Source: Escherichia phage vB_ESM-pEJ01. Taken from it: 64,000 bases of DNA. Position 1 is the stretch's first letter. Each line of letters opens with the position of its first letter. Below, piece by piece: positions 2,119 through 48,598 of the stretch. The stretch is taken from the sequence record OP114734.1; one strand, 5' to 3'. A program made the position numbers and the translations under genes. The notes beneath the pieces were generated by a model that did not search any database, was not told where the DNA came from, and worked only from the letters and a program-made list of their open reading frames with translations.

Positions 2119-3942
2119 TTATGACGCCATCCATGCCTTCCTCATGTCTGAATCTTCGCTATAGAGCAAATCGAATAGCTCTTTATAGTTTTCCGGTAAC
2201 GTGATGATCTCCATGACAGGATCGTTGATCACGCGATGATAGTCTGATTCTGTGAGCGATGCTAAACCTTTGATATATCGAATGTTGTAACCTTTGATAT
2301 TATCTCGGTCGTTCTCGAAATCTTCTAGGTCATAATACCATCGAACATCATCACCTTTCTTTGGTTCAGCAATGATAATAGGTGTTTTGATAAACCGGAT
2401 TCGTCCATCTTCGAACAATTCAGGCCAACGTGCAAAGAAAGAGATCAGACTAGGTTTAATAGACCCGATCCCGTCGGTATCAGCGTCTGTCATAATCGCA
2501 ATATTTTTGTATTGCATAACTTCCAATGCATCAACACCAAATTGCAAGCCAGTGATCGCCATGATGTTAAAAATTTCGGCGTTATTAACGATCTTTGCCT
2601 CCGGTTGTTCCCACGTTGTAAGAGTTTTGCCTCGCAACGGGAAACCTCCATGTAAATCTTGATCGCGTACAGAGATCAGATAGTTGATCGCGGAATCACC
2701 TTCCGTCAAAAACAGGGTAGTTTCTGCGTCAGTTCCAATAAGGTTAGCTTTAACGTGTTTTGCCACCTTAGCCCGTTTCGCTGCCTTTGCTGCCTTAGTC
2801 GCTGCCGCTTTATCTGCTGCCTCTTTGCGTGCCAAGACTACAGCAATAATAGGCATGATAATGTTTTCTTTCTTCGCAATGACTTTAGCCAGCTTTTTAA
2901 AATCAAGATCAATATGACGCTTGATATCACCAGTCGGGTTAGTCAAGCGTTCTTTTGTCTGTGAATCAAAACGAAGGTTAGGCAATTCACGAACAATAAG
3001 AATACAGGTCAATCCAGATTTAACCGCAGCTTTAGTAACATCAACCTTATATTCTTTCTTGATTCGTTTTACAATCTCTTCACAAAGATCATCTGTCACA
3101 TAATCAACGTGTGTTCCCCCGTTTTTGGTAAACAGACCGTTAGCAAAGGATACTGATTTAAAACCTTCTCCCTCGACCGCCGGAACTAGGGCAAGTGAAA
3201 AGTTTTTATCTTCAATGACAAACGGATCATCATTGTATAGTTTAGCATAATCCTTGAACTTACTAACAATACGTTTACCATTAAACTTAAACGTGATCTT
3301 AGGAAATATTACGCTCAATGATTGCAGACGATCATGAACAATATCTAAAACAGAGTTGTCCATCATATAACCTTCGAAGTGGTCGAAGTCTGGACAAAAT
3401 GTAACCTTCGTTCCCTTCAATTTTGATGGTTTTGATGACCATGTGACATTTTCAGCACCGTTTGTGCATTGAACGGTCATTTCTGTTTCGCCGTCACAGG
3501 TCACACCAGTAAACCAATCGCTAAAGAAATTTGATAACGACGACCCAACACCGTTCATCCCTTGCGTTAATCGATTGGTATCATCAAAGTTAGACCCTGC
3601 TTTTGTTCGTGTCCATGCGGCTACAGGTTGCGGAATCTGCGTACCCTCTGGGGTAGTAACCATATGTTGAGGAATACCGCGACCATTGTCTGTTACCGTA
3701 ACAATATTGTTTTGGATATCGACGCTAATCACATTGGCAAATTCAAAGTTAGTGCGGATCGCCTCGTCTACAGAGTTGTCGATGATCTCATCAATGATTT
3801 TAACCAGTCCAGGAACGTATGAAATTTTTGTCCATTTACCGAACAGGAAACGTTGATGTTCTTCGTAAGTTGTTGATCCTATATACATTCCTGCACGCTT
3901 AAGGACATGTTCACGATCAGATAAAATGCGAAACTCACTCAT
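2119..3942 (-). CDS. 39: DNA topoisomerase II large subunit, uninterrupted (T4 gp39 plus gp60-equivalent in one 607-aa ORF)
   Basis: N-terminus MSEFRILSDREHVLKRAGMYIGS and GHKL ATPase motifs match T4 gp39; C-terminus NIAIMTDADTDGIGSI...RYIKGLASL matches T4 gp60. Confidence 0.9.
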   Translation of the reverse strand: MSEFRILSDREHVLKRAGMYIGSTTYEEHQRFLFGKWTKISYVPGLVKIIDEIIDNSVDEAIRTNFEFANVISVDIQNNIVTVTDNGRGIPQHMVTTPEGTQIPQPVAAWTRTKAGSNFDDTNRLTQGMNGVGSSLSNFFSDWFTGVTCDGETEMTVQCTNGAENVTWSSKPSKLKGTKVTFCPDFDHFEGYMMDNSVLDIVHDRLQSLSVIFPKITFKFNGKRIVSKFKDYAKLYNDDPFVIEDKNFSLALVPAVEGEGFKSVSFANGLFTKNGGTHVDYVTDDLCEEIVKRIKKEYKVDVTKAAVKSGLTCILIVRELPNLRFDSQTKERLTNPTGDIKRHIDLDFKKLAKVIAKKENIIMPIIAVVLARKEAADKAAATKAAKAAKRAKVAKHVKANLIGTDAETTLFLTEGDSAINYLISVRDQDLHGGFPLRGKTLTTWEQPEAKIVNNAEIFNIMAITGLQFGVDALEVMQYKNIAIMTDADTDGIGSIKPSLISFFARWPELFEDGRIRFIKTPIIIAEPKKGDDVRWYYDLEDFENDRDNIKGYNIRYIKGLASLTESDYHRVINDPVMEIITLPENYKELFDLLYSEDSDMRKAWMAS

Positions 3943-4041
3943 TATTAAACCTCTTCATAACATAACCATAACTTACTGCAACCGCCACAAAGACGGCTGC
4001 AACAATCATATTAAAAATTGAGTGATTGTCAAGTATATGAC

Positions 4042-4215
4042 TCATGACACGCGCACATTTTTATCATAGTACCCGCCATTAATCCCGCGCGGGGCAGTTA
4101 ATCCCTGTTTGCATTCTTTACCACATTCAGGGCATTCTGCCTTTTCACGCTCGGAAATTTTGCGGATTTTCTGAAATTGACCGTGTTCTTCACAAGAATA
4201 ATCATATAATGGCAT
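4042..4215 (-). CDS. small zinc-ribbon protein (FmdB-like CxxC...CxxC)
   Basis: MPLYDYSCEEHGQFQKIRKISEREKAECPECGK; start moved to ATG at 4215 with AAAGGGGA SD (track ORF 4042..4296). Confidence 0.5.
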   Translation of the reverse strand: MPLYDYSCEEHGQFQKIRKISEREKAECPECGKECKQGLTAPRGINGGYYDKNVRVS

Positions 4216-4216
4216 A

Positions 4217-4885
4217 TTATCCCCTTTGTTTCTTAACTGAATTTGGATCTGGATTTTCTGGTAGGTCTTCCAGACCCATAGCATAACGTTGTGCATAGAT
4301 TAGCATAAGAATATCGCGAGCGCAATCATGAATTGCATCATGTGCGATAAAACCATCTAGCGTACCCATTGGTAACGGGCATTCACACATACCACGATGC
4401 ATCAATGTACGCTCAATGGCGGTGCGAACATCTCGGATGTTCCAGAATCGCACAGGTTCAAGATTGAACGTCTCACGGGTATTGTGTGCACGGCGGATCA
4501 TATCAACCAGTAACGGAATATCAAACGCATTACCGCGTGACCACATTACGGATTTAACCGGATCTACTCCTACAGATTCACAGAATGCGTTAAAACGCGC
4601 TAAACCTTCTTTAGTTGATACTTCCGTACCATTTGTGATTAATTGCTTTCTCATGCCTTCTGAGGCGGTATTCTTCCACCATTCAACCACACCATGATCA
4701 AACACCCTTACACCTTTCTGGGAAGGAATATCAAATTTTACCAGAAAGGAATTGTCAACCAGTTCTTTAAATGTAGGTGGGTTGTGCGGATCTTCTTTAA
4801 ATCCGATTGCCGCCATATTGATCACCGCCCCATCAGGCGGATAACCTAAACTTTCAAAGTCAATCATTAAATCCACTGGAAGCAT
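4217..4885 (-). CDS. dexA: DexA-like 3'-5' exonuclease
   Basis: 222-aa ORF in the T4 dexA position between gene 39 and dda; sequence resembles remembered DexA but was not aligned. Confidence 0.65.
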   Translation of the reverse strand: MLPVDLMIDFESLGYPPDGAVINMAAIGFKEDPHNPPTFKELVDNSFLVKFDIPSQKGVRVFDHGVVEWWKNTASEGMRKQLITNGTEVSTKEGLARFNAFCESVGVDPVKSVMWSRGNAFDIPLLVDMIRRAHNTRETFNLEPVRFWNIRDVRTAIERTLMHRGMCECPLPMGTLDGFIAHDAIHDCARDILMLIYAQRYAMGLEDLPENPDPNSVKKQRG

Positions 4886-4886
4886 T

Positions 4887-5192
4887 TTAAATATCCTCCG
4901 CTATATGCCGGAACAACTCCAGATCGTTTTTATCTAGAATGAAACCGCTACAATCAATAATCCCTTTACCGTAATTATCAGTTAACAGTCGGTCCGTTGC
5001 CATGTATGCGCGTACTTTGTTGTTAAAATTAATTACATGTTGTGCATAATCACAATGAATCTTTTGACGGTTCCACGCGACAATTGATTGTAGATGTATT
5101 ACATTAGCCACATTATTAATAACAACCATATCAAAACCCTCGCTTAGTGGAATGTTCTGGCATTTTATTGATACATTCAGCTTGGTAGTCAC
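4887..5192 (-). CDS. hypothetical protein
   Basis: ORF track (GTG start at 5192); alternative ATG at 5129 with GAGGG SD would give about 80 aa. Confidence 0.45.
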   Translation of the reverse strand: MTTKLNVSIKCQNIPLSEGFDMVVINNVANVIHLQSIVAWNRQKIHCDYAQHVINFNNKVRAYMATDRLLTDNYGKGIIDCSGFILDKNDLELFRHIAEDI

Positions 5193-26629: not shown

Positions 26630-26863
26630 TTATTTTCCTTCTGGGATATAGTCGATGATTAAAGAAAATTCATCTTCTGATACATTATAGCTATGTGAGA
26701 TTGTACCCGTAAAGACCTCAAGATCCGGTGATTTGATATTGCACGGATCGATAATCACCGGAACGCCGCAATCTCTCAAAAATAATTTGGCGAAATACGG
26801 CACGAGGTCAGTTTCAAACTCTGCTTCTTCCAGCAAACGGGAAATGTTAATTTTCAATCTCAT
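26630..26863 (-). CDS. hypothetical protein (77 aa)
   Basis: ORF track. Confidence 0.45.
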
Positions 26864-27380
26864 AAAATTGGTCCAGGCTAGGCAATTCCTCGGTCAATAC
26901 ATCTTCAACCTTTGGCGCTTTCGGTTTATTGACCGATTCCTCGTAGTTGTTGATTTTATCGTAAATGTCCTGTATGAATGCCTCATCAGCAATCTGGCAC
27001 ATATCAGCGTCGCGTTCGTCATATACATGATGCACAAAATATTTGTATTTTGCGGCTGTCGCTGTTCTCTCTTTTTTAATGCGCTGTACAAAAGCATTAA
27101 AGCACGCTTGCGTGATGTAAGCATGAGGATTTTTATACTTTGTCTCGTCAAAATTAATCAAACCCTTGACCGCCGCTTCGATTCCGTCGTCGATCATTTC
27201 TTCGCGCCATGTTTGACTATAACCAGAAAAGTTAAAACGACGTGATAGATTTTTAGAGATTTGCATAATTGCTAGGCCGATTTGATCGCTCATTGGAACT
27301 TGCCGACCTTCTGCTGCAATTTGTTGTTTCCAACGGCAAATTTCTTCGTAAAGCTCTTTATTGTTTACATAATCAGACAC
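26847..27380 (-). CDS. 55: late-transcription sigma factor gp55
   Basis: [50 protein letters not shown] match remembered T4 gp55. Confidence 0.9.
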
Positions 27381-43094: not shown

Positions 43095-43424
43095 TTATGA
43101 TTTTAGTGAATTAACCACTACATCAAAATGATGTACAGAGCACACCTTACGAAACACATATTCATCATGTTTCGGAATCGCCCCCAACCGCTTTATTTCG
43201 CTCGCTGACACGATAAACCGTTTATCAGGTGCATTTACCTTATATGCTTCAACAACGCACGGAAAACGCGTTTTAGAGAGTTCGGGATAGTTTTCTGACT
43301 CCATCAGGACAATGAATACCCTATTACATTGATTGTAGAATCCGGTTTTTGATTTCATCAAGTTTTCTTCTCTGTGAAATTCGTGCAATCTTCCTTTCAT
43401 GATTTCGTTGGTTCCTGTCTTCAT
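43095..43424 (-). CDS. hypothetical protein (start uncertain)
   Basis: ORF track; overlaps next ORF by about 100 nt so an internal start is likely. Confidence 0.35.
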   Translation of the reverse strand: MKTGTNEIMKGRLHEFHREENLMKSKTGFYNQCNRVFIVLMESENYPELSKTRFPCVVEAYKVNAPDKRFIVSASEIKRLGAIPKHDEYVFRKVCSVHHFDVVVNSLKS

Positions 43425-43665
43425 AGTCTACCCACTCAACAAGATCTTTACCTAACTCGAAAGCCCATTCTCGGTCCTGCTTTACGTTTTGTAGGTATGG
43501 ACTTTCCGACACTCGACGAAGTGATCCTGTCGTAACAAGAATGATCCCAGGAATGTTCGGATGTTCCTTTCCATATACAATGGGACGCGAGTCACTATCA
43601 ATACCCTGTAAGAAGGTGTATCCTGAATCACTTAGGATCATATACATTTTCATTTCATCCATCAC
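43324..43665 (-). CDS. hypothetical protein (113 aa)
   Basis: ORF track. Confidence 0.45.
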   Translation of the reverse strand: MMDEMKMYMILSDSGYTFLQGIDSDSRPIVYGKEHPNIPGIILVTTGSLRRVSESPYLQNVKQDREWAFELGKDLVEWVDYEDRNQRNHERKIARISQRRKLDEIKNRILQSM

Positions 43666-43922
43666 AGTTTCCTCAACCAGTTATTAAAGCGAGTAAACCA
43701 TGATGCTTTTCGTGCTTCTTTTACTTTATATGCACGCAAACCACTGAAACACCATTCATAATCATCACTGAAACATGATTCAACAGGAACACCCGCATTT
43801 CGTAGTTCTCTGGTCTTTATCATAAAAAATCCTTGACATAAGGGGCGACCTTCAACAATGATAGGAAGTTTAACTTTTTCCATGAAAGTATACCCAGCAC
43901 GGTCAATAATTTCAATCTTCAT
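43662..43922 (-). CDS. hypothetical protein (86 aa)
   Basis: ORF track. Confidence 0.45.
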   Translation of the reverse strand: MKIEIIDRAGYTFMEKVKLPIIVEGRPLCQGFFMIKTRELRNAGVPVESCFSDDYEWCFSGLRAYKVKEARKASWFTRFNNWLRKL

Positions 43923-45135: not shown

Positions 45136-45163
45136 ATTATAGCATTGTGATTATCTTTGTCAA
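45136..45163 (-). promoter_or_regulatory. sigma70-type early promoter (-35 TTGACA rc 45158-45163; -10 TATAAT rc 45136-45141)
   Basis: Consensus hexamers, 16-nt spacer, followed by SD and ATG at 45106. Confidence 0.5.
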
Positions 45164-45180
45164 CACCCAAAAACAAAAAA

Positions 45181-45200
45181 GGCTACCCCGAAGGATAGCC
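45181..45200 (-). terminator. rho-independent terminator 3' of glycine-rich gene
   Basis: Hairpin ggctaccccgaaggatagcc followed on minus transcript by UUUUUUGUUUUU. Confidence 0.45.
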
Positions 45201-45207
45201 CATAAAA

Positions 45208-45984
45208 TTACACGCGAGCACCGTAGATCGTGCCTACTTTATCCCAGCGTGGAGCATTACCAGTAACAGCCTTACCAGCAGCACCGCCGTTATATTCTGT
45301 ACCGTTACCTTGAGTATTACATCTTCCTCCAGCAGCACCGACATTACCACCCGAACCGCCTGTATATGCACTAAGAGACCCCTCACCAACAGATCCTTTA
45401 CCAGGAGCGGAAATAGTACCAGCAGTTGCACCGGAACTCATATGAGAGGAAGACCCACCAGCACCGAATGGGCGACCACCGCCGCCGCCAAATACTAGTC
45501 GACCCCTGTTACCGCCGCCACCGCCGCCACCGCCGCCAGCGATAGCACCGTTATTTGTAATTCGTAGACGTGTACCGATAGCGTTATTGATTGCGTTTCC
45601 ACCAGCAGCGCCAGCAGCGTTACTACCACCATTACCCCCACGTCCGTAGACAGTCACATCGGAGTTGATGATCAGTGTTACATACTCGTTTGTTAACGAG
45701 CTAGGGAAGTCAAGACAAGGAACGCCAGTAGATTGGGAAACAATATTACCTGTGATAGTAATTACTACAGGAGTAGATCCTTGTGCTTTCATCCAGTTAA
45801 TAAGAGTGTCTTTATTGTAAGAGTTACTAGCACCAATGCTATAATGAATCTCTTTAGAGCGTCCGACCATTGCCGACATATACGCCGGACGACCTAAGCG
45901 TACAGCTTGCATTGCGGCGCTCATCCACCGTTGACCAGTCTCGGACACAGCAGATGATCCTACCCATCCAGAAGATATTGCCAT
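45208..45984 (-). CDS. glycine-rich protein (258 aa) with poly-Gly tracts
   Basis: C-terminal half about 45 percent Gly incl. GGGGGGGGG and GGGGG runs (ccg/cca triplet repeat 45511-45537); ordered N-terminal domain. Confidence 0.55.
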   Translation of the reverse strand: MAISSGWVGSSAVSETGQRWMSAAMQAVRLGRPAYMSAMVGRSKEIHYSIGASNSYNKDTLINWMKAQGSTPVVITITGNIVSQSTGVPCLDFPSSLTNEYVTLIINSDVTVYGRGGNGGSNAAGAAGGNAINNAIGTRLRITNNGAIAGGGGGGGGGNRGRLVFGGGGGRPFGAGGSSSHMSSGATAGTISAPGKGSVGEGSLSAYTGGSGGNVGAAGGRCNTQGNGTEYNGGAAGKAVTGNAPRWDKVGTIYGARV

Positions 45985-46038
45985 AAAATTTCCTCACAAG
46001 AAAAGCCCCATTTAAGGGGCATTGATTGATAATATTAC

Positions 46039-46260
46039 TTAGATGATCTCTGCTTCACCATTCAGGAAGAAAGACCATGTTTTGTTAGGATAGCGAAGCG
46101 CCCATGATTCAGCGGTTTTAACACCAGCTTCGAACAATTGACGGCTGGTTACTTTCGCCATACCATCTTCAATGTCAACGTTTTCAATAATCATCGGGTA
46201 CTTAGCGCCACGCATGAAACCGAAGCCAGCGGAAGATTTGATAATTTTAACAGTTGCCAT
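46039..46260 (-). CDS. hypothetical protein (about 73 aa)
   Basis: Track ORF 46039..46332; ATG at 46260 (MATVKIIK...) has AGGAGAATCAAAATG initiation region and promoter upstream. Confidence 0.5.
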   Translation of the reverse strand: MATVKIIKSSAGFGFMRGAKYPMIIENVDIEDGMAKVTSRQLFEAGVKTAESWALRYPNKTWSFFLNGEAEII

Positions 46261-46300: not shown

Positions 46301-46329
46301 ATTATGCAATAACACCGGATCGCTGTCAA
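46301..46329 (-). promoter_or_regulatory. sigma70-type early promoter (-35 TTGACA rc 46324-46329; -10 CATAAT; 17-nt spacer)
   Basis: Part of recurring promoter-leader cassette. Confidence 0.45.
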
Positions 46330-48530: not shown

Positions 48531-48598
48531 AAGTCATTCCCCCAGATTAAAAATATTCAGTTATATTTATAATCTGGGGCTTTATTTATGATTAACTC

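Follow-up and report, generated by a model that had tools for sequence, protein, structure and literature searches.

What is a protein with long runs of glycine, encoded in part by a perfect tandem repeat, doing among the early genes of a T4-type coliphage, and does the repeat make it variable? The question arises from the window, that is, the whole 64,000-nucleotide stretch of DNA from Escherichia phage vB_ESM-pEJ01 (OP114734.1) analysed here, in which a sequence-only reading had singled out a glycine-rich ORF of 258 codons. The ORF is present as described, with its ATG start (Table 1), and so are the two tracts, GGGGGGGGG (residues 150–158) and GGGGG (residues 166–170). The glycine content of the C-terminal half, put at about 45%, was overstated: we count 31.8% for residues 130–258 and 33.8% for residues 114–258, the figure for all 258 residues being 22.5%. 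The GC content of the gene is 50%, as against 40% for the whole window, but it is only 43% once the Gly codons are removed, and it therefore says nothing about where the gene came from; a foreign origin was considered on this ground and set aside as uninformative.

Over 5.5 kb around the gene the window is 96–97% identical to JSE, RB49, Phi1, KFS-EC and some 50 further records of Krischvirus, and the phage, judged by this identity, is a Krischvirus, an RB49/JSE-like T4-type coliphage. RNA scans of the 64 kb found neither Rfam families nor tRNAs. The features on which our argument draws are collected in Table 1.

Table 1. Features of the g38 locus and its surroundings, with coordinates in the window
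Feature	Coordinates	Strand	Basis and remarks
Perfect sigma-70 early promoter, TTGACA-16-TATAAT with TG	45136..45163	(-)	12/12 matches; serves ORF078c
g38 module, promoter-less, ~875 nt (stem-loop, RBS, g38, terminator)	45164..46038	(-)	Ends accurate to ~2 nt; present or absent among Krischvirus
Intrinsic terminator, GGGCTATCC-TTCG-GGGTAGCC then TTTTTTGTTTT	45180..45201	(-)	Directly after the g38 stop; terminator in the GEC-3S and TB34 records
g38, almost certainly the gp38 long-tail-fibre adhesin, 258 aa, ATG start	45208..45984	(-)	Stop codon 45208-45210; ORF list, Pfam, PHROG, 6F45_D, RB49/JSE/Phi1 annotation
Receptor-binding region (beta-helix and polyglycine sandwich), aa 45-258	45211..45852	(-)	PF05268, AlphaFold2 model, Foldseek, conservation profile
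G5 tract, aa 166-170, in the conserved GGGGGRPFG motif	45475..45489	(-)	Translation
G9 tract, aa 150-158, (GGC GGC GGT)x3	45511..45537	(-)	Counterpart of helix 3 in S16 gp38 (central polyglycine-II helix)
N-terminal attachment domain, aa 1-40	45865..45984	(-)	PF21721; predicted to dock onto the gp37 trimer tip; W7, W20 and Y35 at conserved aromatic positions
GC stem-loop, GCCCC-TTAAAT-GGGGC then TTTTCTT	46005..46020	(-)	Terminator-like; between ORF080c and the g38 RBS (GAGGAA)
ORF080c homologue, 73 aa, unknown function	46039..46260	(-)	Directly upstream of g38, same transcription unit; PHROG 7345
Sigma-70-type early promoter, TTGACA-17-CATAAT	46301..46329	(-)	11/12 matches; before ORF080c; nearest promoter-like site upstream of g38
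Nearest exact T4-type late-promoter motif upstream of g38, TATAAATA	48564..48571	(-)	~2.6 kb away, between tk and rI

The product was assigned from sequence profiles and from a predicted structure. Two Pfam models, GP38 (PF05268; 244.8 bits against a cut-off of 25, E = 1.2e-72, aa 45–258) and Gp38_N (PF21721; 65.6 bits against a cut-off of 25, E = 3.9e-18, aa 1–40), together cover its full length and exceed their curated cut-offs. PHROG 2056, described as 'tail fiber protein; host specificity', is hit with E = 1e-98, and phmmer retrieves gp38 of phage S16 (PDB 6F45_D, 4.8e-52, residues 1–256 of the product) and the receptor-binding domain of PP01 gp38 (9V85, 1.9e-34). An AlphaFold2 model built from 44 homologues (residues 2–258, Met1 being absent; mean pLDDT 93.7, pTM 0.85) has the three domains of the gp38 fold: a helical attachment domain, a beta-helix and a polyglycine-II sandwich. 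Searching the PDB with this model by Foldseek gave 6F45_D (E = 2.6e-22, TM 0.83/0.86) and 9V85_C (TM 0.76/0.88), and nothing beyond these two gp38 structures below E = 1. We are all but certain that the ORF is gene 38 of a Krischvirus and that its product is the adhesin which, as a monomer, forms the cap at the distal end of every long tail fibre. T2-type gp38 adhesins had been named as possible relatives by the sequence-only reading, which turns out to be the exact identity of the protein, and the discovery of a known family, which that reading had itself listed as telling against its proposal, is what the searches produced. Its other suggestion, a link to microcins and colicins, fared differently. 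That the protein might be bacteriocin-like or resemble a colicin translocation domain, or be some other early effector unrelated to the tail fibre, has only its glycine richness and its early-gene neighbourhood to recommend it; Pfam offers no family except gp38 at E ≤ 1, the other PDB sequence matches are low-complexity noise (E ≥ 0.01) and the structures that resemble the model are gp38 structures alone. We reject this reading, to which we attach a negligible probability.

Conservation across the homologues follows the same domain plan. In the attachment domain, W7 and W20 are each found in 101 of 110 homologues and both are present in the window protein, and position 35, which is Tyr here, is Trp in 58, Tyr in 30 and another residue in 22; the role given to the tryptophans comes from the description of the S16 structure (PMC6851490). 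Along the receptor-binding region the alignment profile alternates between conserved glycine motifs (GRGGNGG, GGGGGRPFG and GGxGGNVG) and variable segments (181–210 and 221–230). Evidence contradicting the assignment to the gp38 family was not seen.

A gp38 adhesin needs to be considered together with the fibre protein that carries it. The gp37 partner was examined in RB49, g37 lying outside the window. RB49 gp37 has a Peptidase_S74 intramolecular chaperone domain (residues 871–930), and its C-terminal 299 aa match 6F45_A, the S16 gp37 fragment that was crystallized with gp38 (3.9e-5), a structure that was missed when full-length RB49 gp37 was compared with solved structures. By these domain matches, the RB49 partner is of the right type, ending in a self-cleaving intramolecular chaperone and presenting a tip to gp38. 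This bears on a second reading of g38, namely that the product is a fibre assembly chaperone of the T4 gp38 type, absent from the virion. The product name in the RB49, JSE and GEC-3S records, 'distal long tail fiber assembly catalyst', speaks for it, and an early-type transcription unit would suit such a protein. The name is, however, a legacy label, and the RB49 record, which calls the gene '38', adds 'similar to T2 and RB69 gp38 adhesin'; in sequence and predicted fold the product matches gp38 of S16 and of PP01, both of them virion adhesins, T4 gp38 is very different in sequence from S16 gp38 (PMC6851490), and RB49 gp37 brings a chaperone domain of its own. Host-range mutations in RB49, moreover, map to gp38: spontaneous mutants carry only E230K in this protein, with or without Y231S, and have an extended host range (PMC9569957). 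The chaperone reading is thus highly improbable, and we retain the adhesin.

Both E230 and Y231 are retained in the window protein, and among Krischvirus isolates variants of gp38 correlate with the use of either Tsx or OmpA (PMC12032242). By homology to the solved S16 gp37–gp38 complex, one gp38 molecule would attach to the exposed tip of the gp37 trimer through its N-terminal three-helix domain, with W7, W20 and Y35 as the aromatic contacts. A short beta-helix would then bear two long excursions; their glycine-rich motifs are expected to adopt the polyglycine-II conformation and to stack in three layers as a 'polyglycine sandwich', leaving the hypervariable loops between the motifs to make up the surface that contacts the receptor. 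OmpA and certain O antigens are what this surface recognizes in RB49-like phages. The G9 run would be the central helix of the sandwich, its length set by the fold, and the DNA triplet repeat would merely be the way in which this isolate encodes nine glycines. For annotation, the assignment settles that the ORF determines the host range of the phage, a fact of use in predicting receptors and in engineering for phage therapy, and it warns against taking the glycine runs for disordered sequence or for a hypervariable repeat.

The last point deserves closer scrutiny, as the repeat had been taken for a slippage-prone element that could expand or contract. On the plus strand it reads as ACCGCCGCC repeated 3.1 times with 100% matches (Tandem Repeats Finder). 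In S16 gp38, ten glycine-rich motifs form the polyglycine-II helices of a three-layer sandwich, and the hypervariable loops between motifs constitute the receptor-binding face (PMC6851490; PMC12032242). Helix 3 of S16 (151-GGGGGGGG-158) lies at the centre, its hydrogen-bond network saturated (PMC6851490), and it is with this G8 tract that the G9 tract of the window protein aligns in the comparison with 6F45_D. We surveyed tract length in 110 aligned homologue clusters, each of at least 225 aa. The tract stands in the same register in about 107 of the 110, with nine Gly in most clusters and eight or seven in others; it is no chance feature. In-frame deletions within it were found in three singleton clusters, P0012 (five Gly lost), P0027 and P0030 (three Gly, or one 9-nt unit, lost in each). 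The deletion variants that we inspected are clean codon losses, and P0012 and P0027 come from the same locus on otherwise normal Krischvirus contigs (61 kb and 162 kb). The shorter run, in the GGGGGRPFG motif, has five Gly in 80 and four in 17 among the 120 homologues listed.

We also compared the codons of the G9 tract in eight genes from different lineages. The perfect 9-nt repeat is common to the window and TB34, whereas in RB49 (GGC GGT GGT GGC GGT GGT GGT GGC GGT), GEC-3S, phiS and a Tequatrovirus the nine glycines are specified by other mixtures of GGC, GGT, GGA and GGG. Nine Gly codons are kept in all inspected full genomes, but the DNA repeat itself is not conserved. The same peptide written in different codons indicates that selection acts on the peptide and that the DNA repeat is incidental; tract length that is conserved while codons drift synonymously marks a structurally constrained element and not a variable repeat, the length being fixed by the fold because G9 is the central helix of the sandwich.

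One could still regard the triplet repeat as a contingency locus, at which slippage often changes the length of the poly-Gly run and so diversifies or switches the adhesin. The perfect tandem repeat of the window and the clean in-frame deletions in the three singletons are what would be cited in its favour. Those singletons, however, come from metagenome-style assemblies and may reflect faulty assembly or genomes that are defective. Gain or loss of a triplet leaves the reading frame as it was, the S16 gp38 structure has the tract as a buried helix with a structural role (PMC6851490), and in T6 the tested deletion of a glycine-rich motif (GRM3) gave no viable phage (PMC3157838). Together with the constancy of length and register across the clusters and of the nine codons across the full genomes, these points make a contingency locus very unlikely; the pairing of repeat-number polymorphism with a conserved DNA repeat, by which simple-sequence contingency loci are recognized, was not found. 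Programmed expansion and contraction of the tract is rejected on the survey of 110 clusters and the codons of the eight genes, the rare deletions notwithstanding. What survives of the original proposal is modest. That the tract can change in length finds weak support in the three singleton deletions, and slippage is a plausible source of such rare, probably defective, variants; the notion of a slippage-prone repeat as a source of variability is largely contradicted by the kept glycines, by the synonymous drift and by the polyglycine-II helix of S16. We thus return to the G9 tract as a structural element of the adhesin.

There remains the position of the gene. All window ORFs of at least 150 aa lie on the minus strand, with the exception of one overlapping ORF (26733..27245), and g38 does sit among early genes and far from the tail-fibre genes, as had been observed, its neighbours being, by 96–97% identity to RB49 and JSE, dam, nrdC and 49 and then rI and tk. 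In RB49, g38 is found at 45.4–46.1 kb on the minus strand, between dam/nrdC/49 and rI/tk and on their strand, and genes 34–37 occupy 145–154.7 kb, with g37 at 151,717–154,656 on the plus strand, followed by a small ORF and then by the holin gene t. On the circular map g38 is about 55 kb from g37 and on the early-gene strand, and the g37–g38 synteny that is typical of the late fibre operon is absent from RB49. The early-gene position had been taken as an argument against gp38. Displacement of g38 from g37 was, however, published in 2011 as a peculiarity of RB49-like phages (Trojet et al., PMC3157838), and a 2025 study reports that the position of gp38 differs among Krischvirus isolates (PMC12032242). 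In some of the Krischvirus genomes that we examined, g38 does follow g37. The poly-Gly gene, then, is one already known, from a known family, at a position that is unusual but has been described before: real, but ordinary.

A minor question is how a virion adhesin is transcribed from such a place. Exact TATAAATA motifs number two in the window. In RB49 the same late-promoter motif stands at -36 of g34 and -41 of g36, with TCTAAATA at -43 of g37. On the minus strand of the window between 45985 and 46674, about 690 nt upstream of g38, no TATAAATA was found with up to one mismatch; TCTAAGTA, at the ORF080c stop, was considered as a late promoter and, with its two mismatches, not counted. The g38 module has no promoter, and no late promoter lies nearby, so that g38 would have to be transcribed by read-through from upstream. 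Candidate sources would be the early promoter before ORF080c, at the equivalent place of which the GEC-3S record has an annotated promoter, and the TATAAATA motif before rI. A terminator-like stem-loop sits between the nearest promoter and g38, and it is annotated as a terminator in GEC-3S. Its stem and T tract and the Shine-Dalgarno sequence before g38 are invariant in four isolates, with one loop base and two bases before the ATG varying. Our literature search found no Krischvirus transcriptome bearing on transcription of g38. The ORF080c homologue itself is a paralogue of the ORF at 43662..43922; we considered it as a dedicated partner of gp38, and it is probably unrelated, because its PHROG is one of unknown function, a paralogue lies nearby and it is kept without g38 in several genomes.

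Those genomes define a polymorphism. Querying Krischvirus records with the locus from ORF078c to ORF081c, we found three states. At least 43 records have the full arrangement of the window, which spans 1819 nt. In at least 10 records (FL15, kvi, G2248, G5211, G37-3, MIZ4, MIZ5, KMB43, Skers and UPWr_E1) the g38 module is missing and the span is about 945 nt. In FL15 the stop codon of ORF080c directly joins the ORF078c promoter (TTGACA), and from this junction it follows that the window carries a promoter-less insertion of about 875 nt. The genomes without the module match the g37–t region of RB49 only from the end of g37 onward, and in FL04 the order is g37–g38–small ORF–t. The third state is that of phiS, which has neither ORF080c nor g38 here, with the junction within the promoter/RBS repeat. 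In phiS, g38 follows g37, and the segment comprising the g37 C-terminus and g38 is about 92% identical at the nucleotide level to Tequatrovirus phages. Clearly, the adhesin module is exchanged between genera and shifts from one of two loci to the other.

The boundaries of the module resemble a known type of element, in which the surrounding hyperplastic region abounds. The promoter-early/stem-loop (PeSL) element was defined in the hyperplastic regions of RB49 and phi1 (PMC2839356; PMC4122927), with reporter assays and inverse PCR applied to its termination and mini-circle recombination (PMC2839356); that paper (Arbiol et al. 2010) makes no mention of g38. After g38, the terminator stem-loop and the promoter of ORF078c (45201..45180 and 45163..45136) form an element of the PeSL type, a near-consensus sigma-70 promoter beside a GC-rich stem-loop in a hyperplastic region, and a second stem-loop (46020..46005) lies at the other end of the module. 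The enclosed gene is present in some records and absent from others, with breakpoints at these elements, as in FL15 and phiS.

Taken together, these observations leave room for a joint reading that we put forward tentatively, and which as a whole has less chance of being right than of being wrong. The displaced-locus adhesin of Krischvirus would be uncoupled from late transcription and made by read-through of an attenuating stem-loop, with transcription starting either at the sigma-70 early promoter or at the late promoter that lies about 2.6 kb upstream; the promoter-less, stem-loop-bounded module of about 875 nt would be lost when a T-even-type g37C–g38 module is acquired at the canonical site; and the rare poly-Gly deletions could be real products of slippage, either tolerated or transient. 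If this is true, host-range swapping in Krischvirus is a two-locus process. What apparently goes beyond the existing literature is modest, namely where exactly the module begins and ends, that no late promoter lies close to it and that the locus exists in three states within Krischvirus; together these turn the timing and control of adhesin expression into a small, testable question.

How does the locus compare with known systems? Closest are RB49, JSE and Phi1, the gp38 proteins of which have 258 aa, 97–98.5% amino acid identity and the same G9 tract, encoded, as in the window, at the displaced locus that ORF078c and ORF080c flank and with the same stem-loops on either side; they differ from the window in a few substitutions and in synonymous codons of G9. 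Gp38 of S16 (6F45 chain D; Dunne et al. 2018) is similar over its full length at about 42% identity, has the same three-domain architecture (PMC6851490) and superimposes well on the model, with G9 aligned to helix 3. S16 differs in having the gene after g37 and in its hypervariable loops, with a different receptor as the consequence; the third Trp of its attachment domain corresponds to a Tyr in the window protein. The Tequatrovirus proteins of the T2/T6/PP01 type belong to the same family and are built as the same mosaic of glycine-rich motifs and hypervariable segments (GRM/HVS), PP01 being represented by the receptor-binding domain found with Foldseek; the adhesins of PaulHMueller and 310Ecol104PP are about 90% identical to the window gp38 over residues 6–258. 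Their genes occupy the canonical late operon g37–g38–t on the late strand, unlike the g38 of the window, which is on the early strand and far from g37. T4 gp38, the fibre assembly chaperone, has nothing in common with the window protein beyond its gene number and, in some records, a legacy product name: it is unrelated in sequence and role, and in T4 the adhesin is the C-terminal domain of gp37 (PMC6851490; PMC4122927). Finally, the PeSL cassettes of RB49 and phi1 (Arbiol et al. 2010, PMC2839356) resemble the g38 module in lying in the same hyperplastic region, in having a GC stem-loop and a perfect sigma-70 promoter after the gene and in being present in some genomes and absent from others. 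The genes in the published cassettes are ORFans to which no function has been assigned, whereas the module in the window carries an essential virion gene and contains no promoter to drive it.

The position of g38, the gene for the long-tail-fibre adhesin gp38, is polymorphic across Krischvirus genomes, as comparison of the window with loci of FL15 (L011), phiS (L007 and L006) and FL04 (L010) shows. The g38 module of about 875 nt occupies the window-type locus in at least 43 records, and in at least 10 listed records ORF080c, the small gene just upstream of g38, is kept and the module is absent from this locus; in one of the latter, FL04, we confirmed that g38 lies 3' of the fibre gene g37. In phiS the window-type locus has neither ORF080c nor g38, and g38 is placed after g37. 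The breakpoint in FL15 is the junction between stop codon and promoter; that in phiS falls within the promoter/RBS repeat. Coordinates are collected in the table.

Coordinates of the features discussed
Feature	Record	Position	Strand
g38 module	window	45164-46038	
ORF080c	window	46039-46260	
Small ORF, paralogue of ORF080c	window	43662-43922	
Neighbour of the small ORF	window	43324-43665	
Late-promoter motif pair, tk/rI interval	window	48564-48590	-
Overlapping ORF	window	26733-27245	
ORF078c early promoter	FL15 (L011)	415-450	-
g37 C-terminus and g38	phiS, PP449093.1 (L006)	3300-4760	
'minus_10_signal' feature	GEC-3S, HE978309.1 (L002)	4017-5012	
Promoter	GEC-3S (L002)	5012-5042	
gp38 gene, deletion variant	Logan ERR689735 contig (L008)	318-1079	
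gp38 gene, deletion variant	ENA ERZ27280761 contig (L009)	2501-3277	

Another small ORF, 2 kb downstream of ORF080c, is its paralogue (a local search gives 31% identity over 58 aa with E 5e-7) and is itself similar to the ORF next to it; the three form a small paralogous family within the hyperplastic region. All ORFs of at least 150 aa in window positions 1-64000 lie on the minus strand save one overlapping ORF; scans of the same 64,000 nt turned up neither tRNA genes nor any Rfam family at the gathering threshold.

In FL15 the early promoter of ORF078c, the gene downstream of g38, carries a GC stem-loop (CGGGGAGAAATCCCCG) as the spacer between its -35 and -10 elements, a very compact promoter/stem-loop element; the spacer stem-loop is seen in genomes without the g38 module. 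An exact TATAAATA and a CATAAATA, separated by 12 nt, lie in the tk/rI interval of the window. These paired motifs suggest late-promoter input to rI. Upstream of g38, they are the closest candidate for a late start. In the GEC-3S record, a 'minus_10_signal' of about 1 kb is annotated across g38, evidently the wrong coordinates for the promoter at 5012-5042.

Two contigs carry clean in-frame deletions in the central poly-Gly tract of gp38, which has 4 Gly instead of 9 in L008 and 4 instead of 7 in L009. Such variants are rare, the surrounding Krischvirus contigs are otherwise normal, and the deletions may be true slippage products or artefacts of assembly.

The g37 C-terminus and g38 of phiS share ~92% nucleotide identity with Tequatrovirus phages SF2-1, CT01, RB3 and RB5, suggesting that the fibre-tip module has been exchanged between genera. 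The gp38 of two Tequatrovirus phages, PaulHMueller (MZ501098.1) and 310Ecol104PP (OR062946.1), is ~90% identical to that of the window (gene at 45208-45984) over residues 6-258, much above expectation for these genera, so the receptor-binding module is common to Krischvirus and Tequatrovirus.
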